From Sphyrna mokarran (lineage: Eukaryota): DNA of 64,000 nucleotides. The stretch is from NCBI GenBank assembly GCA_024679065.1, contig JAGIQG010000015.1, positions 64,914,001 to 64,978,000 of the forward strand, read 5' to 3'. Positions 5,407 through 45,379 of the stretch are shown one piece after another. Position numbers and translations under genes: made by a program. Position 1 is the stretch's first letter; every line of letters begins with the position of its first letter. Under the pieces are notes generated by a model, which was given only the letters and a program-made list of their open reading frames with translations, did not search any database and was not told the DNA's origin.

Positions 5407-5639
5407 CTAATCAAAGAAATAACAACAAAAAATAGAGACATAGGGAAAAACTATTCAATCATCAAAGGTTCATCATTGAAAGGAAATTTTGCTAACAGAA
5501 ATTCTTCTATAAATCATAAAGATTTGATAGAATTTAAGATTTTAATTTAATAACTATACTCAAGCCATTTATATTCAAGTGCAACAGCACAAGGCATCAT
5601 ATGAACTACATCATTTTTCTGTTCCCTCTTTCTACATAC

Positions 5640-6277
5640 CTGGATCATGCCACTTTGGAGAGAAGCAGATGCCGTAGCATTGGATACTGGCTTTATCTTA
5701 CTAGCCACTGGAAAGCCTGAACGAAAGGTGGTTAGCACAACTTTCTCTTTTGTACTGTTGATAGGTGTTGCTTTTGGTGCAATCAGTCGTGTTTCTGTAA
5801 GCTTGCGTCCTGAAGATTGGGAGATCTTTTGAATGGAAGCAGTGTGAACTGACACTTTGCCATCTTTCTCTTCATTGCCAGGTTGAGTAATTTTCACCAA
5901 GGAGCTATAAATTGGTACACCTCCAGGTGAAAGATCTTGACATTTACTGTAATTTGACATGATCTCAACAAGGAAGTTACCAGTGTATATTTTTTCTGAG
6001 GTCCCCTTATTGGCAGTGTGACATGCAATAACTTTAAGGATGTTTGCACGCTCTGCTTCCCAATTACAATTTGAAATAATCTCAATCAGTTTAGGTGTAT
6101 TCTTGGACTCCGCTGATGTCTGTGGCTCTGTTGAAGGAAGTTCTGCAATCTCTTTTTTTGGAATGTCACCTTGTACAGCCAAATCCATCTCCTGTGTCTT
6201 CTTTGAAATGCACATCTCAGCAGGATTTGATGTCGTCAAGTTGCTTTCACAATCTTCCAATTTCTCACAGTCCAGCA
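5640..6277 (-). CDS. MGA: MGA exon 13
   Basis: Inside ORF 5547..6290: PKLIEIISNCNWEAERANILKVI, G.FLVEI, P.YSSLVKI, ending SGMIQ|GTATGT. 638 nt, phase 1 to 0. Confidence 0.95.
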
Positions 6278-6629
6278 CTAGACAAGCCAAACAAAGTGAC
6301 TGACTTTGAGTTTTGAGTGATGAGGCTCAGGTAATGCATATAACATATTCTGCAGAGGCCAACCTCTGCAGATATATTTTAGATTACCTACTGGTGTTAT
6401 GTATTCCCTCATTATTTTTAAAATTCTTCACTATTAACATACAAATGAACAATACAAAACCACTATCCCAATGTTAGAAGTCTGAGTGAACAACTTTCCC
6501 TAGTCATCTTAAAACCTACAATCCTATCTTCTAATATACCTCAACTCTTTCCCAGTGAAAGGATGCATTTATTGTCCTATTACTGTACAAGGCATTTAAA
6601 GAGGATGACGCAAGTTAATGTGAAGATTG

Positions 6630-18999: not shown

Positions 19000-20162
19000 G
19001 AGACAGCCCGCTTCACGAAGCTGGCCAGCGATCAAGCTGCCCAACAAATTGGGAGGCCAATGCAGAGCCACTGTGCATGTGCCAATCTCGGCGCTGACAG
19101 ATCAGTGGATATGCAGTGGCCCATTCAATGCAGTGATTTCAGCTTCTCCAATAGGTACAGGTACTCCCCCCTGAAATTTCACACTAGCAGCCTCTGCAGT
19201 GCACAAGAGTGTGGGAGATCTTCTCTGACCACCACTGGAAAAAAAGCATGAATTACTTCAGTTTTCACTCAAGTTTGACAGTTTGAATTTTTAGGGATAA
19301 TTCCGCACCATGTTTTTCTGTCTGTCTTCTGGAATTGGTTCAGCAAAAATCTACTGCTGTCTTTTGCAACACTATTTCACTTCTGCTGAGACCATAACTT
19401 CAGTATCCTACAACAATACTGCACAAATCTCTCGCTGGCTTCAAGCAGCACACGCATCTGGCATGTGCATCCTGCAAATTCACCTCATCAGTTAATCCAT
19501 CAGTGGAGAACAAAACAATGGCAATGGTACCTGGAGTACGACAGGCTTCTCTTGTACAAAGATAATTGGTTATTTTCCAAAATACAAGACACAAAATAAC
19601 TAGAAAGCAGGAAAACCAGACACTAGATATCAATAACTTGTTTAAAGTATAGTTTTTGATTATGGCTTCAGTGAACTGGAGTTTAAAGAAATTACTAAGC
19701 CTAACAAGGCAGCAATAGGTACACGTACATGCTTGCATATATACTGTATGGCAACCACAACTCTTCAGAAGGACTATGTGACATCATTCTCCCAGCTCAT
19801 GCCTACTCGTTTTCAAGTTGAACAATTCTGAAAATCACCACGGTCTACAATTAATAATATATTGTAGAATCAAAGCACAAGGTGTAGTCTTTAGTTTAAC
19901 AAGTACACACTTCCAATGTTTGAGTATTTGAAAATTGATTAAGATAGTCTTTTTTCCCCCCCAACTGCACATAACTTGATGAACAACATTTATTATAGGT
20001 GCATTACACTTTCTAATTAAAAATAGAGGTCAATTTCCTCGTGCTTTGAATTCATAAGAACATCCGAACAAGGAACAGTAGGTCATTCAGTTCCTCGAGC
20101 CCCATTTAGCCCTTTGTCAACATATTTCTCCAGTTTCTCTTCAATATAAAACTGAACTGTAC

Positions 20163-20707
20163 CTGTGCTGTTAGTAGGGTAATAAGCGATGCCTCTGCTC
20201 GTTCTTCTGTAATGTAAGTCCTTGACTTCCCATCCCAAAGGGCACTGTTCTCCAGATCCATCAACTTCATCTGCTTTTTGGATAGCGCTGGGGGTCTCAT
20301 ACGTGCAGAACAAATTGGAAAGCTGGAAGTTTTAATTGGCGGGCTCACTGTTTTTGAGGTTGGTTTTATGCTGTTTGCTGACTTCTGTTCTTTGCTAGCC
20401 AAGTTGGAACCCTGTTTCGTGGCTTTGGAAGCACAACCAACTGAAATGGGCTGCGGCGAATCCATAGTCTGACTGGATGAATGGGCCTGTTGAAGGGTAG
20501 CATCAGGTGCCCGGTGTTTTAACACGCTATCCAACGTTCGAACATAACTAGAGCTTTTGGTGGGCAGCTGATACACAACTTTTGATACTTTGTTTACACA
20601 CAAATCAGCTCGCTGTTTGATGATTTTCTCTTCATTTTCCAGGTATTCATCTAATTTGTCACTCAAGAAGGCAGAGCGATTTTTCATGGTGCTCTCCTGA
20701 CTGGTAC
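20163..20707 (-). CDS. MGA: MGA exon 8
   Basis: Inside ORF 20106..20732: KNRSAFLSDKLDEYLENE, YQLPTKSSSYVRTLDSVLK, KLMDLENSALWDGKSRTYITEERA..SL.TLLTAQ. 545 nt, phase 1 to 0. Confidence 0.96.
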
Positions 20708-21409
20708 CTGAAACACCACCAAAACAAAACATCAGTTCACTTCTTACTGCTGTCCAAAGAAACTTTCATCGATTGATTTGAGTAGTTCAGCTAAGATACC
20801 CTCCTCACCACAACTGTCTGATTGCAAGTGTGCAATTCTTTAACATACCTACTATCACATAATGAACCAAGTTGATTAGGGAAAGCTAGCTTTGACTTTG
20901 AATGGCAAAGTTTACATGGATTAGTTGCTATCTTGTATCAGCAAATACTCTGCACAAGAGATGCACTGATGTGCTGAAAATATAAAGCCTCAAATAAAAC
21001 AGTGTGTCCCTTCTCTGATGGCAAACTCCCACTATTATGCCCATATAGTGAAATACAAACATTACCGCTGGGAAGATTCAAGGCTCTCCTGCTGTTGTGC
21101 CTCATTTTCATGGAGCCATCACATTTGGCAAGATCAGGGTAGAACAGTTGAGGAGAGTATGGTACAAAGATCAACAGCAGCTTGTGTTCATTGAATGTGG
21201 GTTCAGGGTTCAGGTGGATCACTTTTGTTCTATATATGCTTCCAAGTAATAGACTGCTTGATAGTCCCACATTGATTTTTGTTCCACTGGTTTCAATGGA
21301 ATGAAAAAAACCAAGTGGCTTCCACACACAGTGGGATAAACCATACCACTTGGTTCCCAGTTGAAAGCTATCCCCATTAACTTTACACAGTCACAATTTA
21401 TGAACTTAC

Positions 21410-24527: not shown

Positions 24528-25158
24528 CTGTACAAATATTAATCCAAATACTTAAATCAGATAAAGGCCAAACAAGTCGGAAATAAAGATATGGGCATGT
24601 ATCAGTCAGCAAAACCTGGTTAAAAAGACATGAAATTAAGAAGATGTGGCTTGGAGGCAAAACAAACAGCTATAATTGAGCCAATTCTTTCAAACCCTCA
24701 TTCAGCAGTTTGATTTGAGCTCTGAAGCAATGTCTCTATTCTCTAAACCCCTCCGTTTGGTTATCTCTCCAACCCCAATGCTCATTCTCCTTACCTTTTA
24801 CCAAAGCTGCTTCTGGCATTATAATGGCCTGGATTCCATGATCAGCAGCAAATGAATTGGAACTTAGTATGCTTACACTTGTCCACACAATATCTGTGGG
24901 CTTTTACAGTTTGATTAGTGATTTTCAGATAATCAATAGACTAGCATCACCTACAACTGAGACCAGTTTGAGCATGACAAGCGATGGCGCATCTCCTCAA
25001 CTAATCATACTGAAATTCTCACTTGTTAACTATTCTGTCAATAACATCTTAACTGGGGTAACTGTTGAAACAATATTCCAGTATTCTGACACACTCTTTA
25101 ACCATCTACACAAAGTCATTGAATGAGATACATGCCTAAAAATGAATAACAGCCTTAC

Positions 25159-26287
25159 CTGAGATGCATACGACACAAAAGTAACACCCTCCACATCATC
25201 CAGATCTGGACTAACATCACAGAACATTTCGTCCTGTTCTGGAAGCCGTTCAGGGGTGGCCAAAGAAACAGCTGCTTCAGAGACAGAAAGGGGAAGTTTT
25301 GTAGACTGCCGCAGTTTTTTCACTCGAACCCGTCTTTGAGCTCTGGCTGTGAACTGCTGCTTTGATACACGTGGTGACCTGGAACTGGTGCGTGGTTTCG
25401 GTGTTTCCTCAACACTATCGGTTGTGCCATCTGGAGGTCTCCAGATTCCAGAACTGAATGCCTTAGAGGACAAACGTGTTGACTTCGAACAGACAGGCAA
25501 ACTCTCAGTACAAACACCAGAAGCTGTTGTCTTCTCAGTACGTTTGATCTTGCAAAATTCAAAATCTTCTCCTGAGGCCTTTGGAGATGACATACTCTGA
25601 GACGCAATTGAACTATGTGCTGTTGCAGAGGTACTCCTTTTCTTCTCAGTTCTTCCAGACACAGAATCAGAGTCATTCTCTTTGTATTTGGTACATTCTG
25701 GTGATGAATCTACACTTCCTAATTTGGAAGTTTCAGTAGAGCTGGATGAGTGAGTAGGTTTTTCTGCTGAGTTCAGAGAGCCAAGAGCAACAGGTGTCAG
25801 AGATGTCCAATTCCTCCGACAAGGAGACAGTAGGTTTTGCGGAAGTTCAGATATTTTTATGGTACCCTTTGTAACAGTGCATGGTTCCAGGTAAACAACA
25901 GGCATTTTGCCACTTTCTATTCGCAACATTTTGGCTTTGGCTGTCCCTTCAGAGCTGCTTAATGGCCGCTTGGTGACCCCAGTAACAGTTGGATCCACTT
26001 CACTTGCACCATTTTTACCTATAGTTTTATTAACTAGCTCACGATTTGTTCCATCAAGCTGCGGCCTTGACACTGGAGTGCTGTGGCTAGAAGAAGAATC
26101 AAAATAATCCTCCTCTTCCTTGCACTTCAGTCTAGCACCATCAAGGTCCTCTGGGTTTGCTGTATGGTCATAGTCATCATCAGGTGGCTCTTCTTTGATA
26201 ATAATATTAAATGATTCTTCCTGGTCTTCAGATGATGCTGTATTGAATGGATGAGTTGAAAACACATGAGGGAGGTGTTTCAAGATG
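25159..26287 (-). CDS. MGA: MGA exon 3
   Basis: Inside ORF 25030..26283. Acceptor ttatttccag|, donor CAG|GTAAGG. MGA-like motifs IIKEEPPDDDYD, AKAKMLRIESGKMPVVYLEPCTVTK, PDLDDVEGVTFVSY. 1129 nt, phase 2 to 0. Confidence 0.95.
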
Positions 26288-29200
26288 CTGGAAATAAATA
26301 AAGAAAATAATGCTCAAGGACAATTCACACTGAACATACAATATGCTTCAGAATCCAATATATTTAAATCTATAACCCAACATTAACGAGGTGCAGGCAA
26401 TTTCAAATTAGCATAGCATTAATGAATATCAGTACGGTTAATTGGCATCCAAAAATGCTTACTGAAGAATTAGTTTTGATATTTATACTAAACAAATTCT
26501 ATTAGGGAATGTTAAAAGGATGCCATAGAATACTACATGCAGGGAAACCTTTTCTTCTGTTGGGGCAATCAAAAAAGGAGGGAACATTATCTTATAATTG
26601 GAGCTAGGCTATTTAGAATGGCTTCAGGAAGCAGTTCACCCTTCCTCCATAATGGAAGTAGGAAATTTTCTTCTCCAAAGTGCAATGGAACAACTGGAAC
26701 TTAAGGCTGAGATAAAGAGGCTATTGTTTGGTAAGGATATCAAGCAAAATGGAATGAGAGATAAATGGAATGAAGGTACAGATAAGGCATGAACTGAATG
26801 GCAAAGCAGATTCAAGAAGCTGAATAGTCTAACCCAGTTCCAAGAGCAATGTGGTTACAAATTAGATTCCTTTATCTTCATAACATTCACAAATTTTATT
26901 CTTCAAATATTGGGCTGCATTTTACATCAAAAACAATGGTTCTTTCTACAATTCACTAGGTGTCAAAGATTTAACAATTTTTGTAGTATAGTTTTCCTCT
27001 TTTGAAAGTCGGTTTGAATCAGCCTTCAAATCAACAGGATCTTCAGGGGTGCACCAACAGTCATGTCATCAAATAGGATAAGCAGCCAATCACATTTATG
27101 TATTCTCATACACAGCAAACCAGAAAGTATAGACAGTGAAATAAAATGATTGAGCCATGCACAAGTGTGACAATATAGTCTCCATTTGCCTGGATAAGTG
27201 CAGGTTCAACAACATAACACCATCCAAAACAAAACAGCCCACTTTATTGGCATGCCATTCACCACCTTAAACATTCACATCCTCTACCACCACTGGAAGC
27301 TGAATCTACTACATATATTAAGCACTGCAACAAATAACCAAATCTTCTTTGACAGCATCTTCCAAACCCACGACCTCCATCACTTAGAAGAACAAGGGCA
27401 GAAGATGCATAGATACACCACGACCTGCAAGTTCCCCTCCAAGTCACACACCATCCTGACTTGGAACTAAATCCTTATCCTTTACTGTCTATGGGCTTTC
27501 AGAACTCCCTTCCTGATAGCACTGTCAGCACACCCACATCATGTGGGTTGCAGTGGTTCAAGTCAGCCGCTCACTACGATCATCTCAAGAATCATTTGGG
27601 ATGAGCAATAAATACTGGCCTGCCCAGCAATGCCATGTTCCATGAAAGAATGAACAAAAAAAACTAAGCTAAAAATCATTAAATTTAAAATAATTAGGAT
27701 TGTGGAATTTAGTAATTATTAACTTAGTACATTAAAACTTACTTACTGCAACATTTTTTAAGAGTTCTTTCACTAAGACTAAGATTGTAGAGGTGTGCAT
27801 CAGTTCAATTTTTAATTAATTGCATTCAGGGGTACTTCAACAGTGCACCCTCATAACACAAACTTCTATATTTCCATTTTAAACTGTGCATGCACGGACT
27901 CCAGAAGTTACTGTCAGTTCAGAGGACTGAATGCTGACATTGTTGCTAACACTCCTACCATAAAATATGAGCCAATCATTTGATCCCTCAGGACACCTAA
28001 ACTAAATTAGAATAAAACATAAAATATTGAAAATTCAGAACATGGAAGACAAGGACGAGAATTCTCGTTCACCTCACCAGTGCTGCCAGCAAGAATGGAA
28101 AATTTGGCATTCAGCCAAATCTCCATCCAGGAGGACTGGAAAAGTTCAGCCACGAACAAAGTCAGAGAAATCCGGCCAAGATAGAATAACATACTAAAAA
28201 TTCCCACCCTTTCTTTTGAGATACTAACCAAATTTCTATTTTGTCCAGGAATTTTATGCCTTTAGATTCAATTTCCAGCTTTAGTCTTTATGCATATTAG
28301 ATATAAATAAAAATGTTGCATATAGTACACATTTTTCACCACACACCTTATTTCTTGCGTCATACATTTTAGTTAGTGTTCAAAAAGATATATACCGACA
28401 TTTATAATGGGAAGTTTTCTCTATGAAACGTTTATAACACAATATACTTGCAGGCTTTCATCACTAGATGGCAATGAAGCTCAAATAACTCAACGGTCTC
28501 TGCAATTTTGTCTATCTGACATCTTCCTTTTCACACAATTTTCAAAAACAAGATTTGATTTGTTAATTTTTTTACTTCCTAGATCTGATTCCCCTACCCC
28601 ACTTTTCTCCTGTCCTGCCTCTCAAAATCTGCAGCTACATTGCCTCCAAATCTCTTACAATTTACCCCACTGCTCTCCCCATCACAGCCTTTTCTGACCT
28701 TATTTGCCTCTTGCAAGACTCTAGTCCTTTGCGCGGAACTCCCCCGGCTTCCTTGTTCCTTTTCAGCCTTTCAGTATGTATCCCTGCCCCATGCCTTGTC
28801 TTCCTATGTTCTCTATTTCAGCCCAATGTTGTTCCCTTCCCATGGGTTTCTTCAGCCCTGTTAGCTCTAATTTTTTTTCTTGATTATTTATCTTTCGAGC
28901 CCTGCAGCTCATCTATCTACTGTTTCATAAACCACATCTTTAACCTGCCAGCATTCCTTTTTCCGATGCAGTGTATCATGTCAAAATTCAAAATAAGCCA
29001 TGCTCTTTGCTGTTTCCTAGGATTGTAGTGGCAATTCAAAACCTGATTTCAAAAGTCCTATTGCGGAATAAACTATTTGTCGTGTCATAATTAATTTATA
29101 AACAAATTGCTGCTTCCCGGTCTTTTAAGTGTGAGGCTTTATAACATAATTTCGCTTTAAACGACTTTCTTTAACTTAAGGTAAAATGGAATAAAGAAGA

Positions 29201-39391: not shown

Positions 39392-41422
39392 GCCTCTGAT
39401 GCTGCACATGTACATTAGCAGTAGCAGCTTTCTGAAGACAAGAGAGAGCTGTGAGGCCCCTGCTATTGCAGGCTGCCTGAAGCAGCTCCCCCCACCAAAT
39501 TGGGGGACCCACGGCATGAGACTTAACCCCACCAACTTCCCATCGTCCAGGCCGATCAGAACAGCCTTTCCTCAACGATCGCAGACCCCCTCGTCTTTCC
39601 TCAACCGATTACTATACAGTGGCAGCAAACCCTCTCTCCTTCTCACCACTCCCCACCAATCCCTGCGAAGCGGCAGAGAGTCCCCTCTCCCCACCGATCC
39701 GAGTGGCAGTGGGCTCCTTTCATTAGCCCTGCCATGGTGGGTATTGCCCAGGTGTCAGGGTGGCACTGCCTATTTGGCACTGCCCATCGGGCAATGGGGA
39801 GCATGTCTATTCCTCAATGGCACGAACCTTTCCCAGAGAGGTCATAAGTGGGGGGAGCTAAGCCCAGACAATTGAGCGTCGGGCTCAGTAAGCAGATGCA
39901 AGTGTTCATTTTAATAGATTTAAATATATTAACCTGCTTCTCGCCATTTCCGGTGAGAGGCTGACCACGCCAAGTATTTGGTGCTTGTAAAATGATGCCT
40001 GCCACGGAAACTGGCACCAATCACACTCAGTACTTTATGGCCCACTTTAAGAAAATGGACACAACGCAACAGTAAAATTGCTTCCTTAGTTTTAGTTCTA
40101 ATATGTTGTTTGCCGATCTCATTCATGAGTTTTAAAATTATCTTCTCATAAGAAACAAAGATTTCAGTTCATTTAACCAAAATAGTTTTCATTCTGTCTT
40201 TGCTGGATATAAATGTTAAAAGTCACACTTCCTACAAATGCTCAGAACAATCAGACAAAACCTAATTACATTACACATGGTTTTATCTGCATGCCAATGA
40301 AGAGATGGTGAACCAATCACGAAGGCACGAAACTCACTAGTCTTGAATACTGAAATTAAATGCAACTGTCTCAAGTGAAGGGAATCTAGGCTGAAGCAAC
40401 ATTACTTGATCAAATGTATCTCAGATATGCCTACTTAAGACAAAATTCAAATTCCATATGTTACTTGTCAAATTGTTCAACTATCCAGTCACCATTCATG
40501 AATTGGGATAATATTATTCAACTGAACATCCTGCTGAGACAGAGCAACAGTTTGCAACAAAATACACAGGACTACACTGATAAACTCTTTCTGTGCTGCT
40601 CTATTCAGATTTTATTCCTCACAAGAAAGATATACTTTAAGTTTCTCTTGGCCACATGGGATGATGGGCTAAACAGCCCAACAAGTGGTTATACCACGTT
40701 TCAATGGATTTGTTAACACCATCAGGCTAACAACAATTCAGCACAACACACCAAATGCAGAAAGTTTCAACATTCTGAAACTAGAGTTAAGATAGATAGT
40801 TACAATTTAACTGAAAGCTGTTCTGGAAACATAAACTCAATAACTTTGAAATGGATTAGGTCTGCCAATTACATTGCCAGGCATCTCAAATAAACCCACT
40901 GTGCCACTTTCGAATTTACTACATATTTGACTCGTACTCTATATTAACTTGCCTATCCTTTGTTGAACCCTGCTAGTTAATCTTCTTCACAATAGCACAT
41001 CAGGTAATTTCTACAGCAAGAAAGTTAATGGGTGTTTGAAGACTGAATAACCTAATGGATCAATGCACTGTGTTAATTTATAGAAGCAACAAGGTCCGGA
41101 TTGAAAATGGAAATTTCACACTGTTGCAGTAGAGGTATTTTGGGACTGTATTAATACACCTTTAACCTATCCTACAAGTCCCATGAGCATGCTTGATGGA
41201 GGGAGGCAGTGAGTGAATTTTACTGATCTTAAAAAGTATGGAGTGCATCAAACCAAGTTAACAAAAAGAGCCAATTGTCTGAATATTAAAGGAAATAGAC
41301 AATAAGTTCAAGTTTTTATTGCCAATATAAAATAAAAAAGATTATTTTGTTGTAAAATTTGAAAAATTGCATGAAATAACAAGACATGGTATATTTGTTA
41401 TTCTTTTAAAGTCTTTGCTTAC

Positions 41423-42531
41423 CTTTCAGTTGTTCTCTTCGGTTTTGTGCTCATTTCTGCATTAAATTCACTTGTTTTTGGTATCTCAGTTTCTGGGGAT
41501 TCTTCCTCTTCATCAGTGTTATACAATTCCCCATCAAAACCTGCACCCGGAGATGCATGGATTTCACCCGGCATCTTCTTGTGCTTAGACTTTGTCTCAG
41601 ACTGTCCCTCACTTTTAATTTTCAAGTGCCCGCTGGACTCGGTTACACTTTTGGAAGAAGCAGAATCATCACTGCAACCTCCGTCTGTTGATTCATTGCT
41701 TCGGTGCCTCAACTCCCGCATTGGCTTACTGTTTAGCCCATCATCCCGAAAGCCTTTTGCAAATGGATTGAAGTCAATCTTCAGTTGAGTGATCTTTATG
41801 TTCTGATAAGCAGTCACTGCCACAAACTCAGTCTGTGGAAAAGTGAAGGTGAGTACATTTGGGCCATTAAGGGGAATTACATCAGTGAGTTTGTCAGCAG
41901 GAATGACATGCAAGCGTGGCAGGTACCGATGCATGGAATGCAGGATGATGTGACCTTCTTGGTCAAGAGTATTGTTGGTAAGTTTCAGTTTGTAAAAGGA
42001 GATAGGTTGCCTCATCCAGTAGCTCCCACTGGAAGGTGAATTAGGATGAATGTACACCCTGCCAAGGACATGTGGTTCCGCTTTACCATTTACCTCCCAC
42101 CAGCGCCCATTCCACTTATAGCGGTGGTTGTCAACAGGAGCAATATCCATTACTAAAATGTACTTCCGTGAAGAATCTAGCCCCGTGATGCAGAACCTAC
42201 AATTTGGGAACATGCGCCGGCCGTGTTTTGTGAGGATCATCTCTGTGCCACGCTTATAAAACTGACTCCACATCTCCTGGTTCTCTAAAGTGACGCAGAC
42301 ATTTCCAGAGTAGCACTCAAATGGGTGGCGGACTCTCCCTGGTCCCAATTTGTTCCTTTTTTCCAAGATGCAACCAACACCCCCGAGTTCTTGTTTAGCC
42401 ACCAACATACTGCGCTCAGTGCCACCACTCCCAGGTGCCTGCTTGAGAATGACAAAGTATGCAGCAGGTGTGCCCGAGTTTGATGAAGTATTGGTCTCCT
42501 GCTTTGCATACACTAACTGCTGATTCTCCAT
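41423..42531 (-). CDS. MGA: MGA coding exon 2 (start codon and entire T-box domain); exon including 5'UTR part spans 41423-42627
   Basis: ORF 41419..42531 has T-box motifs TLENQEMWSQF..GTEMILTKHGRRMFP, LKLTNN, HSMHRYLPRLH, FPQTEFVAVTAYQN..ITQLKIDFNPFAKGFRD. Acceptor tcttacag| at 42628, donor AAG|GTAAG at 41422. 1109 coding nt, ends phase 2. Confidence 0.97.
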
Positions 42532-43464
42532 ACTCTTTAGAGGTCAAAGCCCATCCGACAGAGAAAGAGAGAGAGAGAGAAAGAGAGACATCCAAAACCT
42601 GTCGTCAAGAGAGGCCCATTTACCACCCTGTAAGATACAAATAAAAACATTTACAGCATCAAATAAATTCCAGCAGGATCTTAAGATCAATTTCACTGCA
42701 GCTCATGTATCCAAGAACTTCAACTCTCAGCTCCAAATTAACATGCATCAGTGCCATACAATGAATTCTGATACTAAAAACAAAGCTTCCTGGCAGGGAG
42801 TGAAAATTCAATCATTTCAGGTGAATACTGTGTATTGCATGGGTTGGATCCACTTTTCTGATATGGATCACATTCAATTAGGGTCCCTGACGTCTTTCTT
42901 CCATAACCAGAAAGCAGGCTGTCAGACGCACAATATTTAATTTTCCCGGTGTATTTCATGAACGAGCACAGTACAGAAGAAACTTATTGCTATAAAAACG
43001 AAACCAACACATGCATCAGTCTTAAAGTCCTGTAACTGGCAAGTAACATGGAAAGTTTATTCAGTACTCCAATATTGTTTTTAAAAAGAACACACTTCTC
43101 TAGTATTAGGAAAAAATATTTATATGAATTAGGTTTTGTTTGTTATCTTCTAACCTGGAGCCAAAACCAAGATTTTCCTTTGTATTTCATCCCAAACAAG
43201 ACTGAAAAAAAATTGCAATGCTCGAACCCAGTTCTATAATCAAACAAACCAAAACTCATACCTGTGCAAGACCCACATGGAAAAGTCCCAAAGCCCAATT
43301 TCCATGACTGTTAATGAAACAATACAGTAGCAATACTTGGATAAATGTCCACCTATCTGATTCAACCAGTGGTTCAAAGCACAGAAATTTCTGAAAAGAA
43401 TATTCAGATACATGAAAAATTTCAACTGTTTCAAAGTTTACAAACACTACATTAATGGTGTCTT

Positions 43465-43730
43465 AGGGGTTAGAACCGCTGCCTCACAGCTCCATTCCAA
43501 CCTTGGACAATTGTCTGTGTGGAGTGTGAATTCTCCTCATACCTGCATGGTTTCCTCCAGATACTCCGGTTTCCTCCCACAGTTCAAAGATGAGCAGGTT
43601 AAGTGGATTAGCTATGGGAAATGCATAGAGTTACAGGGATAGGCTAGAGGAGAGGGTATGATGCTCTAGAGTTCGTGCAGACTTGATGGAACCAATGGTT
43701 TCTTCTGCACAGTAGAGGTTCTATAATTCT
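43465..43730 (+). mobile_element. HE1/V-SINE-like SINE
   Basis: GCTGCCTCACAGCTCC..TGTCTGTGTGGAGT..CTCCGGTTTCCTCCCACAG..AAAGATG.GCAGGTT. Confidence 0.8.
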
Positions 43731-43914
43731 GTGCATTAGGCAGAATAAAAATTACAAATAGTAATCTTGGAAAATGCATGTTGACTGCCACTAGCAATAG
43801 ACAGCAACAGTAAGACTGAAGTATTCCATCAGCTTCTCAGTGCAATCATAAATTGCTTCAGTTTCATAACTAGGCACTCTAGTCACATATACACTATCCT
43901 CTCAACTAAATACC

Positions 43915-44226
43915 ATCACTTCTTGGCCTTTTGGCTAGGATCAAATGTAGTATTGACATGCTGTGCTTAGTTGAAGTCATTAGGTTGCATTTTAGCTTCA
44001 TTTGAAACAATTTTTAAAAGCAGCAACTCAACCTTTTGGCTAAGATGCAAATGAGATCAAGCCTTGGAGAGGAGCTATGCCTACTCCAATCAGCTTGGAG
44101 TATGTTAATCAAGCCCAAGACAGGAGGTGAGAGTCCTGTCTTGTCAGCTTGGATAGCGAATATCTCAACTTGTTCAGACTCTGAATTGGATTTGATTTGA
44201 TTGAATTGGAATAAAAACAAAAAAAC
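43915..44226 (+). mobile_element. U2 snRNA-headed SINE-like element or U2 chimeric retrocopy
   Basis: 43915-43953 matches U2 nt 1-39 at 35/39. Second U2 fragment CCTTTTGGCTAAGAT at 44032-44046. 3' end of GATTT-like repeats then an A-rich tail. Confidence 0.75.
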
Positions 44227-45379
44227 AGATACCAGATGATATTTTGTTCGAACATCTAATATTATCTATAAACTATTCAAACTTCTCAATGAAATTCTAG
44301 CAACTTTCTCCCAGGCATCTATCAATCTACATACATATAAATTAACCTTAATTTTTCAAATTAAATTCCAGTCCACAGCTCATTTCAAAATATATTTAAT
44401 TCTGTACAGAACAAACAGAAAAAAAAGTAATTCTCGCAATGTTTTGCTGGCTATTTGGTGTAAACTCTAATTAAACAACTAAATAAAGAATGAGGAAATA
44501 GAAGTCAATTTCTGATCTTTTGCATAGTTACAATTTTGTTTACTCCACCTTTGGGCCCCTAACTCTGAAGACATCTCAAGTTCTGTCTCCCCTAACAAAG
44601 AATTTGAACACCTGTCCTTATCTTCTTCTATGAACTGGGATGATATTTTTGATTTGTTAACACTGCAAAGAGGTGCCTTGGAACATTTTATGTGCTAAAG
44701 ATGCTGTATAAATTTAAGTTGTTAAACAAAATGGTCATCTCAATTTGACCTATTATGTGTACAATTATAATATTTGTCAAGTGAGTAATGCAAAGATGGT
44801 TAGTAGCAGAGCATAAAATACAGATGATAAATGAAGTAAATCAGATTCTAATTCATTAATAACTATTCCTAAAACTATTAAACATCGTTTTAAATGTGTG
44901 GAATAGATTGATCAAACAATTCTGCAATGCTCCAAGAAGAACTGACCCCGTGACTAAAAATGTGTTTATCTGCTGTGTAGTACAGGAAATATTCAAGTTT
45001 ATCTCAAAATATTAGTATGCGGAATAAAAAGTTACACATTAAATTGTTAAACTGTAAAACATAAAATTTAAACTTCTGTTTCTCTATTGGCTATTGGGTT
45101 TTGTTATTGTTCCATCAAATACTGTTTTTTTAAAAATAAACATATAAACAAGCTCATAACTCAGGACAATCATGGGTCTACTAATGTCACAACCACCAAT
45201 GTGCTTTTCAGATCTCCAATCTGCAAAACGACAACATTCAAATTGTGTAAATACCTACTTGCATACATCCAATTATCCACGGGACAAAATTGATGAACAA
45301 AAACAATTTTCACCAGTCTGATTACGCTACACGAATCAGAGGGAGAATGTGGAGGATACATAGCTTCTCTAAAAGAGAG

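Follow-up and report, generated by a model that had tools for sequence, protein, structure and literature searches.

A U2-headed SINE family in a shark genome, with copies inside U2 genes and a Tx1-type LINE as its likely partner

SINEs that carry an snRNA sequence at their 5' end have been described from crocodilians as SINEU-1/-2/-3, families of 1,000-8,000 copies each (PMC4494074, cited here, like the other papers below, from excerpts). In that excerpt no SINEU was detected outside crocodilians, and PMC5381603, PMC4758252, PMC5786205 and PMC8455134, as far as their excerpts go, either name SINEU for crocodilians alone or do not have it. The mode of transcription of snRNA-headed SINEs was left open in the original description, a question that arises because snRNA genes have no internal promoter; the proximal element of snRNA genes lies at about -60 (PMC4494074). 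Two other retrotransposons, Keno (Tx1 clade) and Utopia, occupy the U2 gene itself: downstream of Utopia, U2 begins at nt 39, a site identical to that of Keno (PMC4640811, PMC6136364), and Tx1-Mar clusters with Keno (PMC4494074). Our search of the literature, Repbase and Dfam entries lying outside it, found no report of a U2-headed SINE for cartilaginous fishes.

The element analysed here, 312 nt long, is the sole copy of a U2-headed SINE within a 64,000-nt stretch of shark DNA (the window), and its features are collected in Table 1. It resembles SINEU-1/-2/-3 in being non-coding and shorter than 500 bp, with a U2 head, repeated snRNA pieces, an A-rich tail, oligo-T runs, no tail in common with a LINE and an snRNA-headed Tx1 partner (PMC4494074). 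All that defines SINEU (a U1 or U2 head, a fixed multicopy unit of less than 500 bp, an A-rich tail, target site duplications (TSDs) and, on indirect evidence, a Tx1 partner) was found here, whereas the named families require a crocodilian host, which the shark is not. Moreover, SINEU-1/-2/-3 prefer Mariner-N4_AMi, while the flanks of dispersed shark copies are, by eye, mutually unrelated; and the excerpt of PMC4494074 reports neither residence in U2 at the Keno site behind a U2 promoter nor an antisense fold-back over the head in the crocodilian families. With Keno and Utopia the shark element has in common an A-run after which U2 takes up again at nt 39 (PMC4640811, PMC6136364), and Keno has an APE endonuclease, as does the partner LINE; but Keno and Utopia are LINEs, while the shark element is non-coding and its partner LINE mostly dispersed. 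R2 is co-transcribed with its 28S rRNA target (PMC4494074), whereas the target here is a low-copy Pol II snRNA gene; unlike R2, the shark element is non-autonomous, the 5' part of the target stays as the head of its RNA, and most copies leave the target. Finally, U2 processed pseudogenes and snRNA-LINE chimeras likewise start at the snRNA 5' end and have TSDs (PMC4494074), but in the shark element the head-body junction and the body itself are constant over about a thousand copies, and the body is not a LINE fragment. What the present analysis contributes for this genome is the copy count, the two subfamilies with promoter-abutting junctions, a test of U2 residence blind to the upstream side and the counts of LINE junctions. 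From the arrangement of these sequences, we regard it as probable that source copies lying in U2 genes were transcribed from the U2 promoter and spread by a U2-headed, Keno-like Tx1 LINE.

Table 1. Position of the element, its parts and the neighbouring exon in the window
Feature	Position	Strand	Basis
Whole element, U2-headed SINE of subfamily A, a dead and dispersed copy	43915..44226	+	
Head, U2 snRNA nt 1-39 (to nt 40 in subfamily A consensus)	43915..43953	+	
Antisense copy of U2 nt 11-39, predicted fold-back over the head	43958..43986	+	
AT-rich linker with T5 run	43987..44022	+	sequence
Second U2 piece (consensus: U2 nt 4-27)	44023..44046	+	
Hairpin module 1, opening with U2 nt 24-31	44054..44101	+	folding and end-to-end alignment to module 2
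Hairpin module 2, holding the 10-bp hairpin 44116-44143	44106..44155	+	folding, alignment
Small hairpin	44163..44178	+	inverted repeat in consensus, self-match at consensus 249-266, E 0.003
3' region: short repeats, polyadenylation-type hexamer 44210-44215, A-rich tail	44183..44226	+	3' end common to the family
Proposed left TSD, partner 44229-44233	43910..43914	.	chance level
T-box exon of the MGA gene	41422..42543	-	Pfam T-box E 3e-75; MGA among best named hits

The preliminary description of this locus had the element begin at U2 nt 1 (43915) and match U2 nt 1-39 at 35/39, with two mismatches due to CpG decay. The same value was obtained against an intact U2 gene of the same genome (L031), the mismatches at nt 4 and 10 being CpG decay and those at nt 24 and 31 not; the head of the consensus matches the genome's U2 at 38/39. 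The second U2 piece, said to lie at 44032, is present there and is longer in the consensus (element nt 109-132, U2 nt 4-27, 23/24, E 9e-8). The duplicated motifs were likewise located, at 44056/44108 and 44090/44144, as were the arms of the 10-bp hairpin, at 44116 and 44134, and a repeat-type 3' region with an A-rich tail lies at the place claimed for it. The fold of the window copy is better than that of 100/100 shuffles (z -3.41). Two claims stood in part. The element had been called internally dimeric: a hairpin module of 49-50 nt in its right part is indeed doubled, the two modules aligning end to end over 49 nt, but the halves of the element have only a U2 piece in common (a 21-nt self-match), and it is best described as a patchwork of U2 5' fragments rather than an internal dimer. 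Both 5-nt ends of a weak possible TSD, ATACC, are in place, but they are no better than chance: the best duplication around this copy, 8 nt with 1 mismatch, was equalled by 31/238 mismatched control pairs.

Rfam detects U2 in the window copy at 42.9 bits (E 5.7e-7, under the gathering score), in an alignment that spans the whole U2 model, and on the element it returns nothing but U2 at a meaningful E-value. A diverged full-length U2 variant was ruled out, as similarity is limited to nt 1-39, nt 4-27 and 8-nt words; the T5 run of the element is without the G of what we take to be the Sm-site consensus. A U1-derived body was also discarded, with no match better than E 0.87, and the linker had no significant match to the Tx1-type LINE.

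A search of the genome with the element gave 3189 candidates, and the 40 that were scored were all near full length (40/40) and 89-92% identical to the window copy, itself excluded. The exact 21-nt head-body junction occurs 239 times in the genome, the reversed control 0 times. These counts rule out a single-copy truncated U2 pseudogene and bear out the proposal of a U2-headed SINE family, with many dispersed copies having head, body and tail in common. Since the junction is exact in 13/59 loci chosen by other means, subfamily A may be put at about 1,100 copies or more, an estimate from two sets that overlap in a few loci and are biased to well-kept copies. The fetched loci hold 131 distinct copies, 114 of them near full length, and 11 linked positions divide the latter into subfamilies A (n = 86) and B (n = 28, a number enriched by a targeted search). 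The median identity to the own consensus is 93.4% in A and 91.6% in B; the two consensuses are 90.6% alike, with the head junction at nt 40 in A and nt 37 in B. The window copy is 93.1% identical to the A consensus and 84.8% to that of B. No copy comes near its consensus (maximum identity 96.4%), so that the family looks inactive.

TSDs of at least 11 nt were found in 13/114 near-full copies, compared with 7/1500 control pairs, so that the expected duplications exist in the family; they span 11-17 nt in some copies, the window copy not among these. A start exactly at U2 nt 1 is seen in 22/131 copies, and other upstream sequence common to copies was seen in 0/114, LINE tails excepted, the comparison being computed for promoter and LINE only and the flanks otherwise judged by eye. 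A U2-like site preference was not apparent among dispersed copies: 8/52 go on with TC after the A-run, against a background of 8.8%. Single copies (L008, L107, L109, L152) carry extra U2 pieces with variable ends, a sign that individual copies can gain U2 sequence as well. Some loci (L078, L160, L162, L243, L257, L269) hold SINE copies in tandem or inverted pairs. A word search of sequencing runs listed no RNA run with the element, a result that speaks neither for nor against expression; 14 rows (organisms A-F and other samples) held 0.21-0.36 of the element's words, and the presence of the element in other species may be taken only as a lead.

Besides the dispersed copies, the body is found inside U2. 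The genome's intact U2 forms a four-gene array at G000:C949:17.33-17.35 Mb. The genome has 11 matches to a pattern in which U2 nt 39-55 come directly after an A-run: 5 SINE copies, 1 older relative, 4 Tx1 LINE tails and 1 unclear. Since this pattern selects the insertion site itself, a second search was run with U2 nt 50-140, blind to the upstream side; it gave 71 candidates, 40 of which were scored and the best 30 taken. These comprised 6 intact genes with promoter, 7 loci in which U2 follows the SINE body and an A-run, 1 in which it follows a LINE tail, and 16 plain pseudogenes or fragments. In the 7 body-preceded loci, U2 resumes by BLAST at nt 38, 39, 40, 42, 42, 46 and 52, the later values belonging to decayed junctions. 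The two lists together give nine distinct loci with the body in U2, resuming near nt 39. The link to the U2 site of Keno and Utopia drawn in the preliminary description is thereby borne out, with the SINE body at the published site. Older relatives of the SINE body stop at the U2 nt 39 site too, L106 (G000:C827:37,348,656; 82% over 116 nt) and, by its tail alone, L104, so that the association with U2 predates subfamilies A and B.

Most body-plus-U2 copies are without promoter. In L186, L192 and L200, head, body and U2 are followed by about 40 nt of genomic U2 flank, and plain U2 retrocopies likewise carry about 40 nt of 3' flank. Pooled over 7 loci, the non-CpG divergence is 6.1% in the U2 part and 7.2% in the body, so that the U2 part is no older, and the value of plain U2 pseudogenes is 7.2%. 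As flank and similar age also occur in plain retrocopies, body-plus-U2 copies could be later insertions into pseudogenes. The one observation in favour of read-through from a source gene is that 7/8 promoterless copies have a single, seamless head; the remaining one, L107, has a duplicated U2 6-47. 

The plain retrocopies deserve a separate remark. In most of them (L184-L207) the genomic 3' flank of about 40 nt ends at nearly one base, and this common flank suggests an unprocessed or 3'-extended U2 RNA as template; the array as it stands now has another variant of this flank. Three loci, L138 (G000:C113:19,962,700-19,963,700), L103 and L104, have a divergent U2 3' part, 76-82% identical to the array U2, after a LINE tail or SINE, possibly from a second, older U2 paralog; in L138 a second U2 1-52 and another LINE fragment follow about 200 nt past this part. 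Two solitary U2 genes with promoter, L035 (G000:C224:27,346,613) and L036 (G000:C113:64,711,766), are 93% identical to the array U2.

The LINE found in the U2 tails is a Tx1-type family with 2366 candidates in the genome. The ORF fragments of its decayed copies contain, by Pfam, Exo_endo_phos (APE endonuclease), RVT_1, zf-RVT and a ZCCHC3-like ORF1; the APE endonuclease, RT, zinc finger and Tx1-type ORF1/ORF2 expected of a Keno element are present. U2 resumes at nt 39 after the LINE in L099, L100, L102 and L109, and after decay in L138 and L188. The last of these (G000:C949:17,393,462) is a second interrupted U2 beside the array, in which the Tx1 3' end is followed by U2 46-191 and the 5' half of U2 and the promoter are missing. 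Among 30 LINE 3' ends (four being segmental duplicates of one another and one the query, itself also one of the two in U2), 4/30 have a SINE within 20 nt downstream and 2/30 continue into U2 from nt 39/41. In a genome of 2.8 Gb that holds a few thousand SINE copies, we estimate that chance adjacency of SINE and LINE would occur about once per 100,000 sites; compared with this, 4/30 junctions suggest that a single enzyme jumped between templates or used one nick repeatedly. The 2/30 3' flanks in U2 fall below the share of more than 20% of flanks used as a rule for target specificity (PMC4494074) and, the LINE being mostly dispersed, its specificity appears relaxed.

At the 5' ends of the LINE (30 fetched of 35 candidates, two loci overlapping) a U2 piece comes first in 22/30, and U1 pieces also occur at 6 of the loci. 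The U2 heads stop at nt 30-35 or at nt 51-58, and we infer that those ending at 51-58 fit a target duplication of 12-20 nt at the U2 site. A U2 promoter was found at 0/30 of these ends. Full-length copies with interchangeable snRNA heads occur among L210-L239 (an example is L174, G000:C760:34,170,983-34,176,349), the types being U2 1-35 (with a fixed junction, about ten copies), U2 1-51/58, and patchworks of U1 and U2. Taken together, the U2 site, the U2 heads in common and the 4/30 junctions indicate that the SINE was likely mobilised by the Tx1-type LINE.

The preliminary description had offered two origins, an independent U2-headed SINE or a derivative of a U2-targeting LINE. The second would make the element a non-autonomous form of the Keno-like LINE, left by internal deletion, instead of a SINE with its own body. 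U2 heads occur on both, the LINE 5' UTR opens with 13 nt in antisense to U2 nt 17-29 (9-11/13 in 12/12 copies examined, rough p 0.004), and one of four LINE tails reached 4/300 shuffles against the SINE tail. On the other hand, the fold-back duplex of the LINE is not significant (67/1000 shuffles), a profile of 15 LINE 5' UTRs found nothing in the SINE body, and the remaining shuffle tests of the body against 5' UTR and 3' tail were not significant either. The LINE with a common 3' tail envisaged at the outset did not emerge, and the U2 head is the only end that SINE and LINE were found to have in common. A LINE derivative is thus very improbable, while an independent U2-headed SINE fits.

Copies of both subfamilies were found behind the U2 promoter. 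Beside the U2 array, at G000:C949:17,389,7xx, a U2 upstream region, matching at 85% over 48 nt (E 3e-9) and at 81% over 57 nt, is followed by U2 4-37, the body, an A-run, U2 40-191 and the U2 3' flank, the genomic U2 flank continuing for several hundred bases. This copy belongs to subfamily B (89.2% to the B consensus) and has a repeat inserted in its upstream region; none of the 27 further B copies fetched has a U2 promoter, and no copy among 40 scored is more than 84% identical to this one. At G000:C557:766,5xx a U2 upstream region, matching at 78% over 77 nt (E 2e-13), precedes the head and the subfamily A junction; 12-14 nt of the A body are kept, then a 400-nt Tx1 ORF2 fragment follows, and the remainder of the A body is absent within the 18 kb read. 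A third copy near the array, L054 (G000:C949:17,313,200-17,313,900), is A-type and internally deleted, and its head is preceded by 24 nt of promoter-proximal sequence (22/24). L054 is also bordered by a 149-nt direct repeat, the copies of which are 74% alike. The retained upstream region spans about -60, with a short motif common, by eye, to U1 upstream regions. Source copies with a promoter had been foreseen for such a family, and in 2 of the 8 U2-promoter loci found a head-body junction stands behind the U2 upstream region, the other 6 having intact U2; both searches being insensitive, 2/8 is a count of promoter loci found. The two are evidently decayed fossils, and an intact subfamily A source copy was not among the U2-promoter loci. 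The window copy has no U2 promoter upstream.

These few, dead promoter-bearing loci can also be seen differently. U2 genes might merely be a preferred landing site, the head having been gained once by template switching to U2 RNA and the sources relying on a different Pol II promoter upstream, by read-through from the host, a proposal made for the crocodilian SINEU. The variable extra U2 pieces on single SINE copies and the U1 pieces on LINE 5' ends do indicate frequent snRNA capture, and insertion into U2 pseudogenes may explain the body-plus-U2 copies. However, the head stops at the Keno site in both subfamilies, a promoter-abutting junction exists for each of them, and, while a number of copies start exactly at U2 nt 1, the near-full copies have no alternative upstream sequence in common save LINE tails; we therefore consider this explanation unlikely. 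Still less credible is a Pol III SINE whose internal promoter is built from U2 words resembling A and B boxes. A regular-expression scan, with patterns that we take to be the box consensuses, does find one A-box-like and two B-box-like words per consensus, but these are U2's own sequence (nt 18-31). Moreover, each consensus has four T4-T6 runs, of which one falls in the first 20 nt and another, 5-6 long, in mid-element, which disfavours Pol III; there is no excess of copies starting at the second U2 piece, and 26/29 tail-selected loci reach the head region. An internal promoter from tRNA, 5S or 7SL, as in classical SINEs, was not found by Rfam.

Next to the head lies the antisense stretch, element nt 44-72, complementary to U2 nt 11-39. 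Of its 29 positions, 16 are identical in A, 17 in B, 18 in the promoter copy and 15 in the window copy, values reached by 18, 3, 1 and 78 of 1000 shuffles, respectively. The mismatches are mostly A>G and C>T, by which G-U pairs are kept, and the energy of the head/antisense duplex is better than 1000/1000 shuffles in A, B, the promoter copy and the window copy. The fold-back would cover what is presumably the branch-point pairing region of U2.

With sources in U2 genes, the life of the SINE may be pictured as follows. The body is found inserted in U2, which takes up again near nt 39; one such locus has kept both the promoter and the 3' flank. Pol II would start at U2 nt 1, giving an RNA of U2 nt 1-39 plus the body that may end at the A-rich tail or read on through the remaining U2. 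The antisense stretch is predicted to cover the head and so to hide U2's branch-point pairing part. The enzymes of the Tx1 LINE, as the junctions suggest, would then copy the RNA mostly into unrelated sites with duplications of 11-17 nt, where the insertions would be promoterless dead copies such as the one in the window; a rare return into a U2 gene would renew the source. The genome still holds the arrangement predicted for a source, in the order promoter, U2 head, body and remainder of U2. If this picture is right, spread across the whole genome is possible for a U2-targeting LINE and its SINE with an essential RNA gene kept as the promoter, and a similar origin would be predicted for the U2 heads of the crocodilian SINEU and of Tx1-Mar. 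To a stronger version we give about an even chance: a closed cycle of a Pol II SINE on an snRNA gene, with homing to U2 by way of the Keno-like LINE, the U2 promoter, the U2 5' end serving as a homology arm when the SINE seamlessly re-enters the gene, and an antisense hairpin hiding the head so that thousands of copies can arise and the spliceosome is not poisoned, the same trick being used by the LINE. Such a cycle, of an origin independent of crocodilians, would, if true, supply the missing mechanism of SINEU transcription.

As for its surroundings, the window copy lies about 1.4 kb 5' of the MGA T-box exon, antisense to it, and we infer that it is intronic in MGA. Turtle and bird MGA, among the best hits, match this exon at 63-67% identity; at this level a crocodilian host is unlikely and a cartilaginous fish fits. 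The window appears to hold much of MGA, the T-box exon being the sole one identified, and further long ORFs were observed on the minus strand at 25033-26313, 20109-20765 and 5550-6326. Another short repeat, at 43470-43720, is placed just upstream of the element and may resemble the common tRNA-derived SINEs of cartilaginous fishes.
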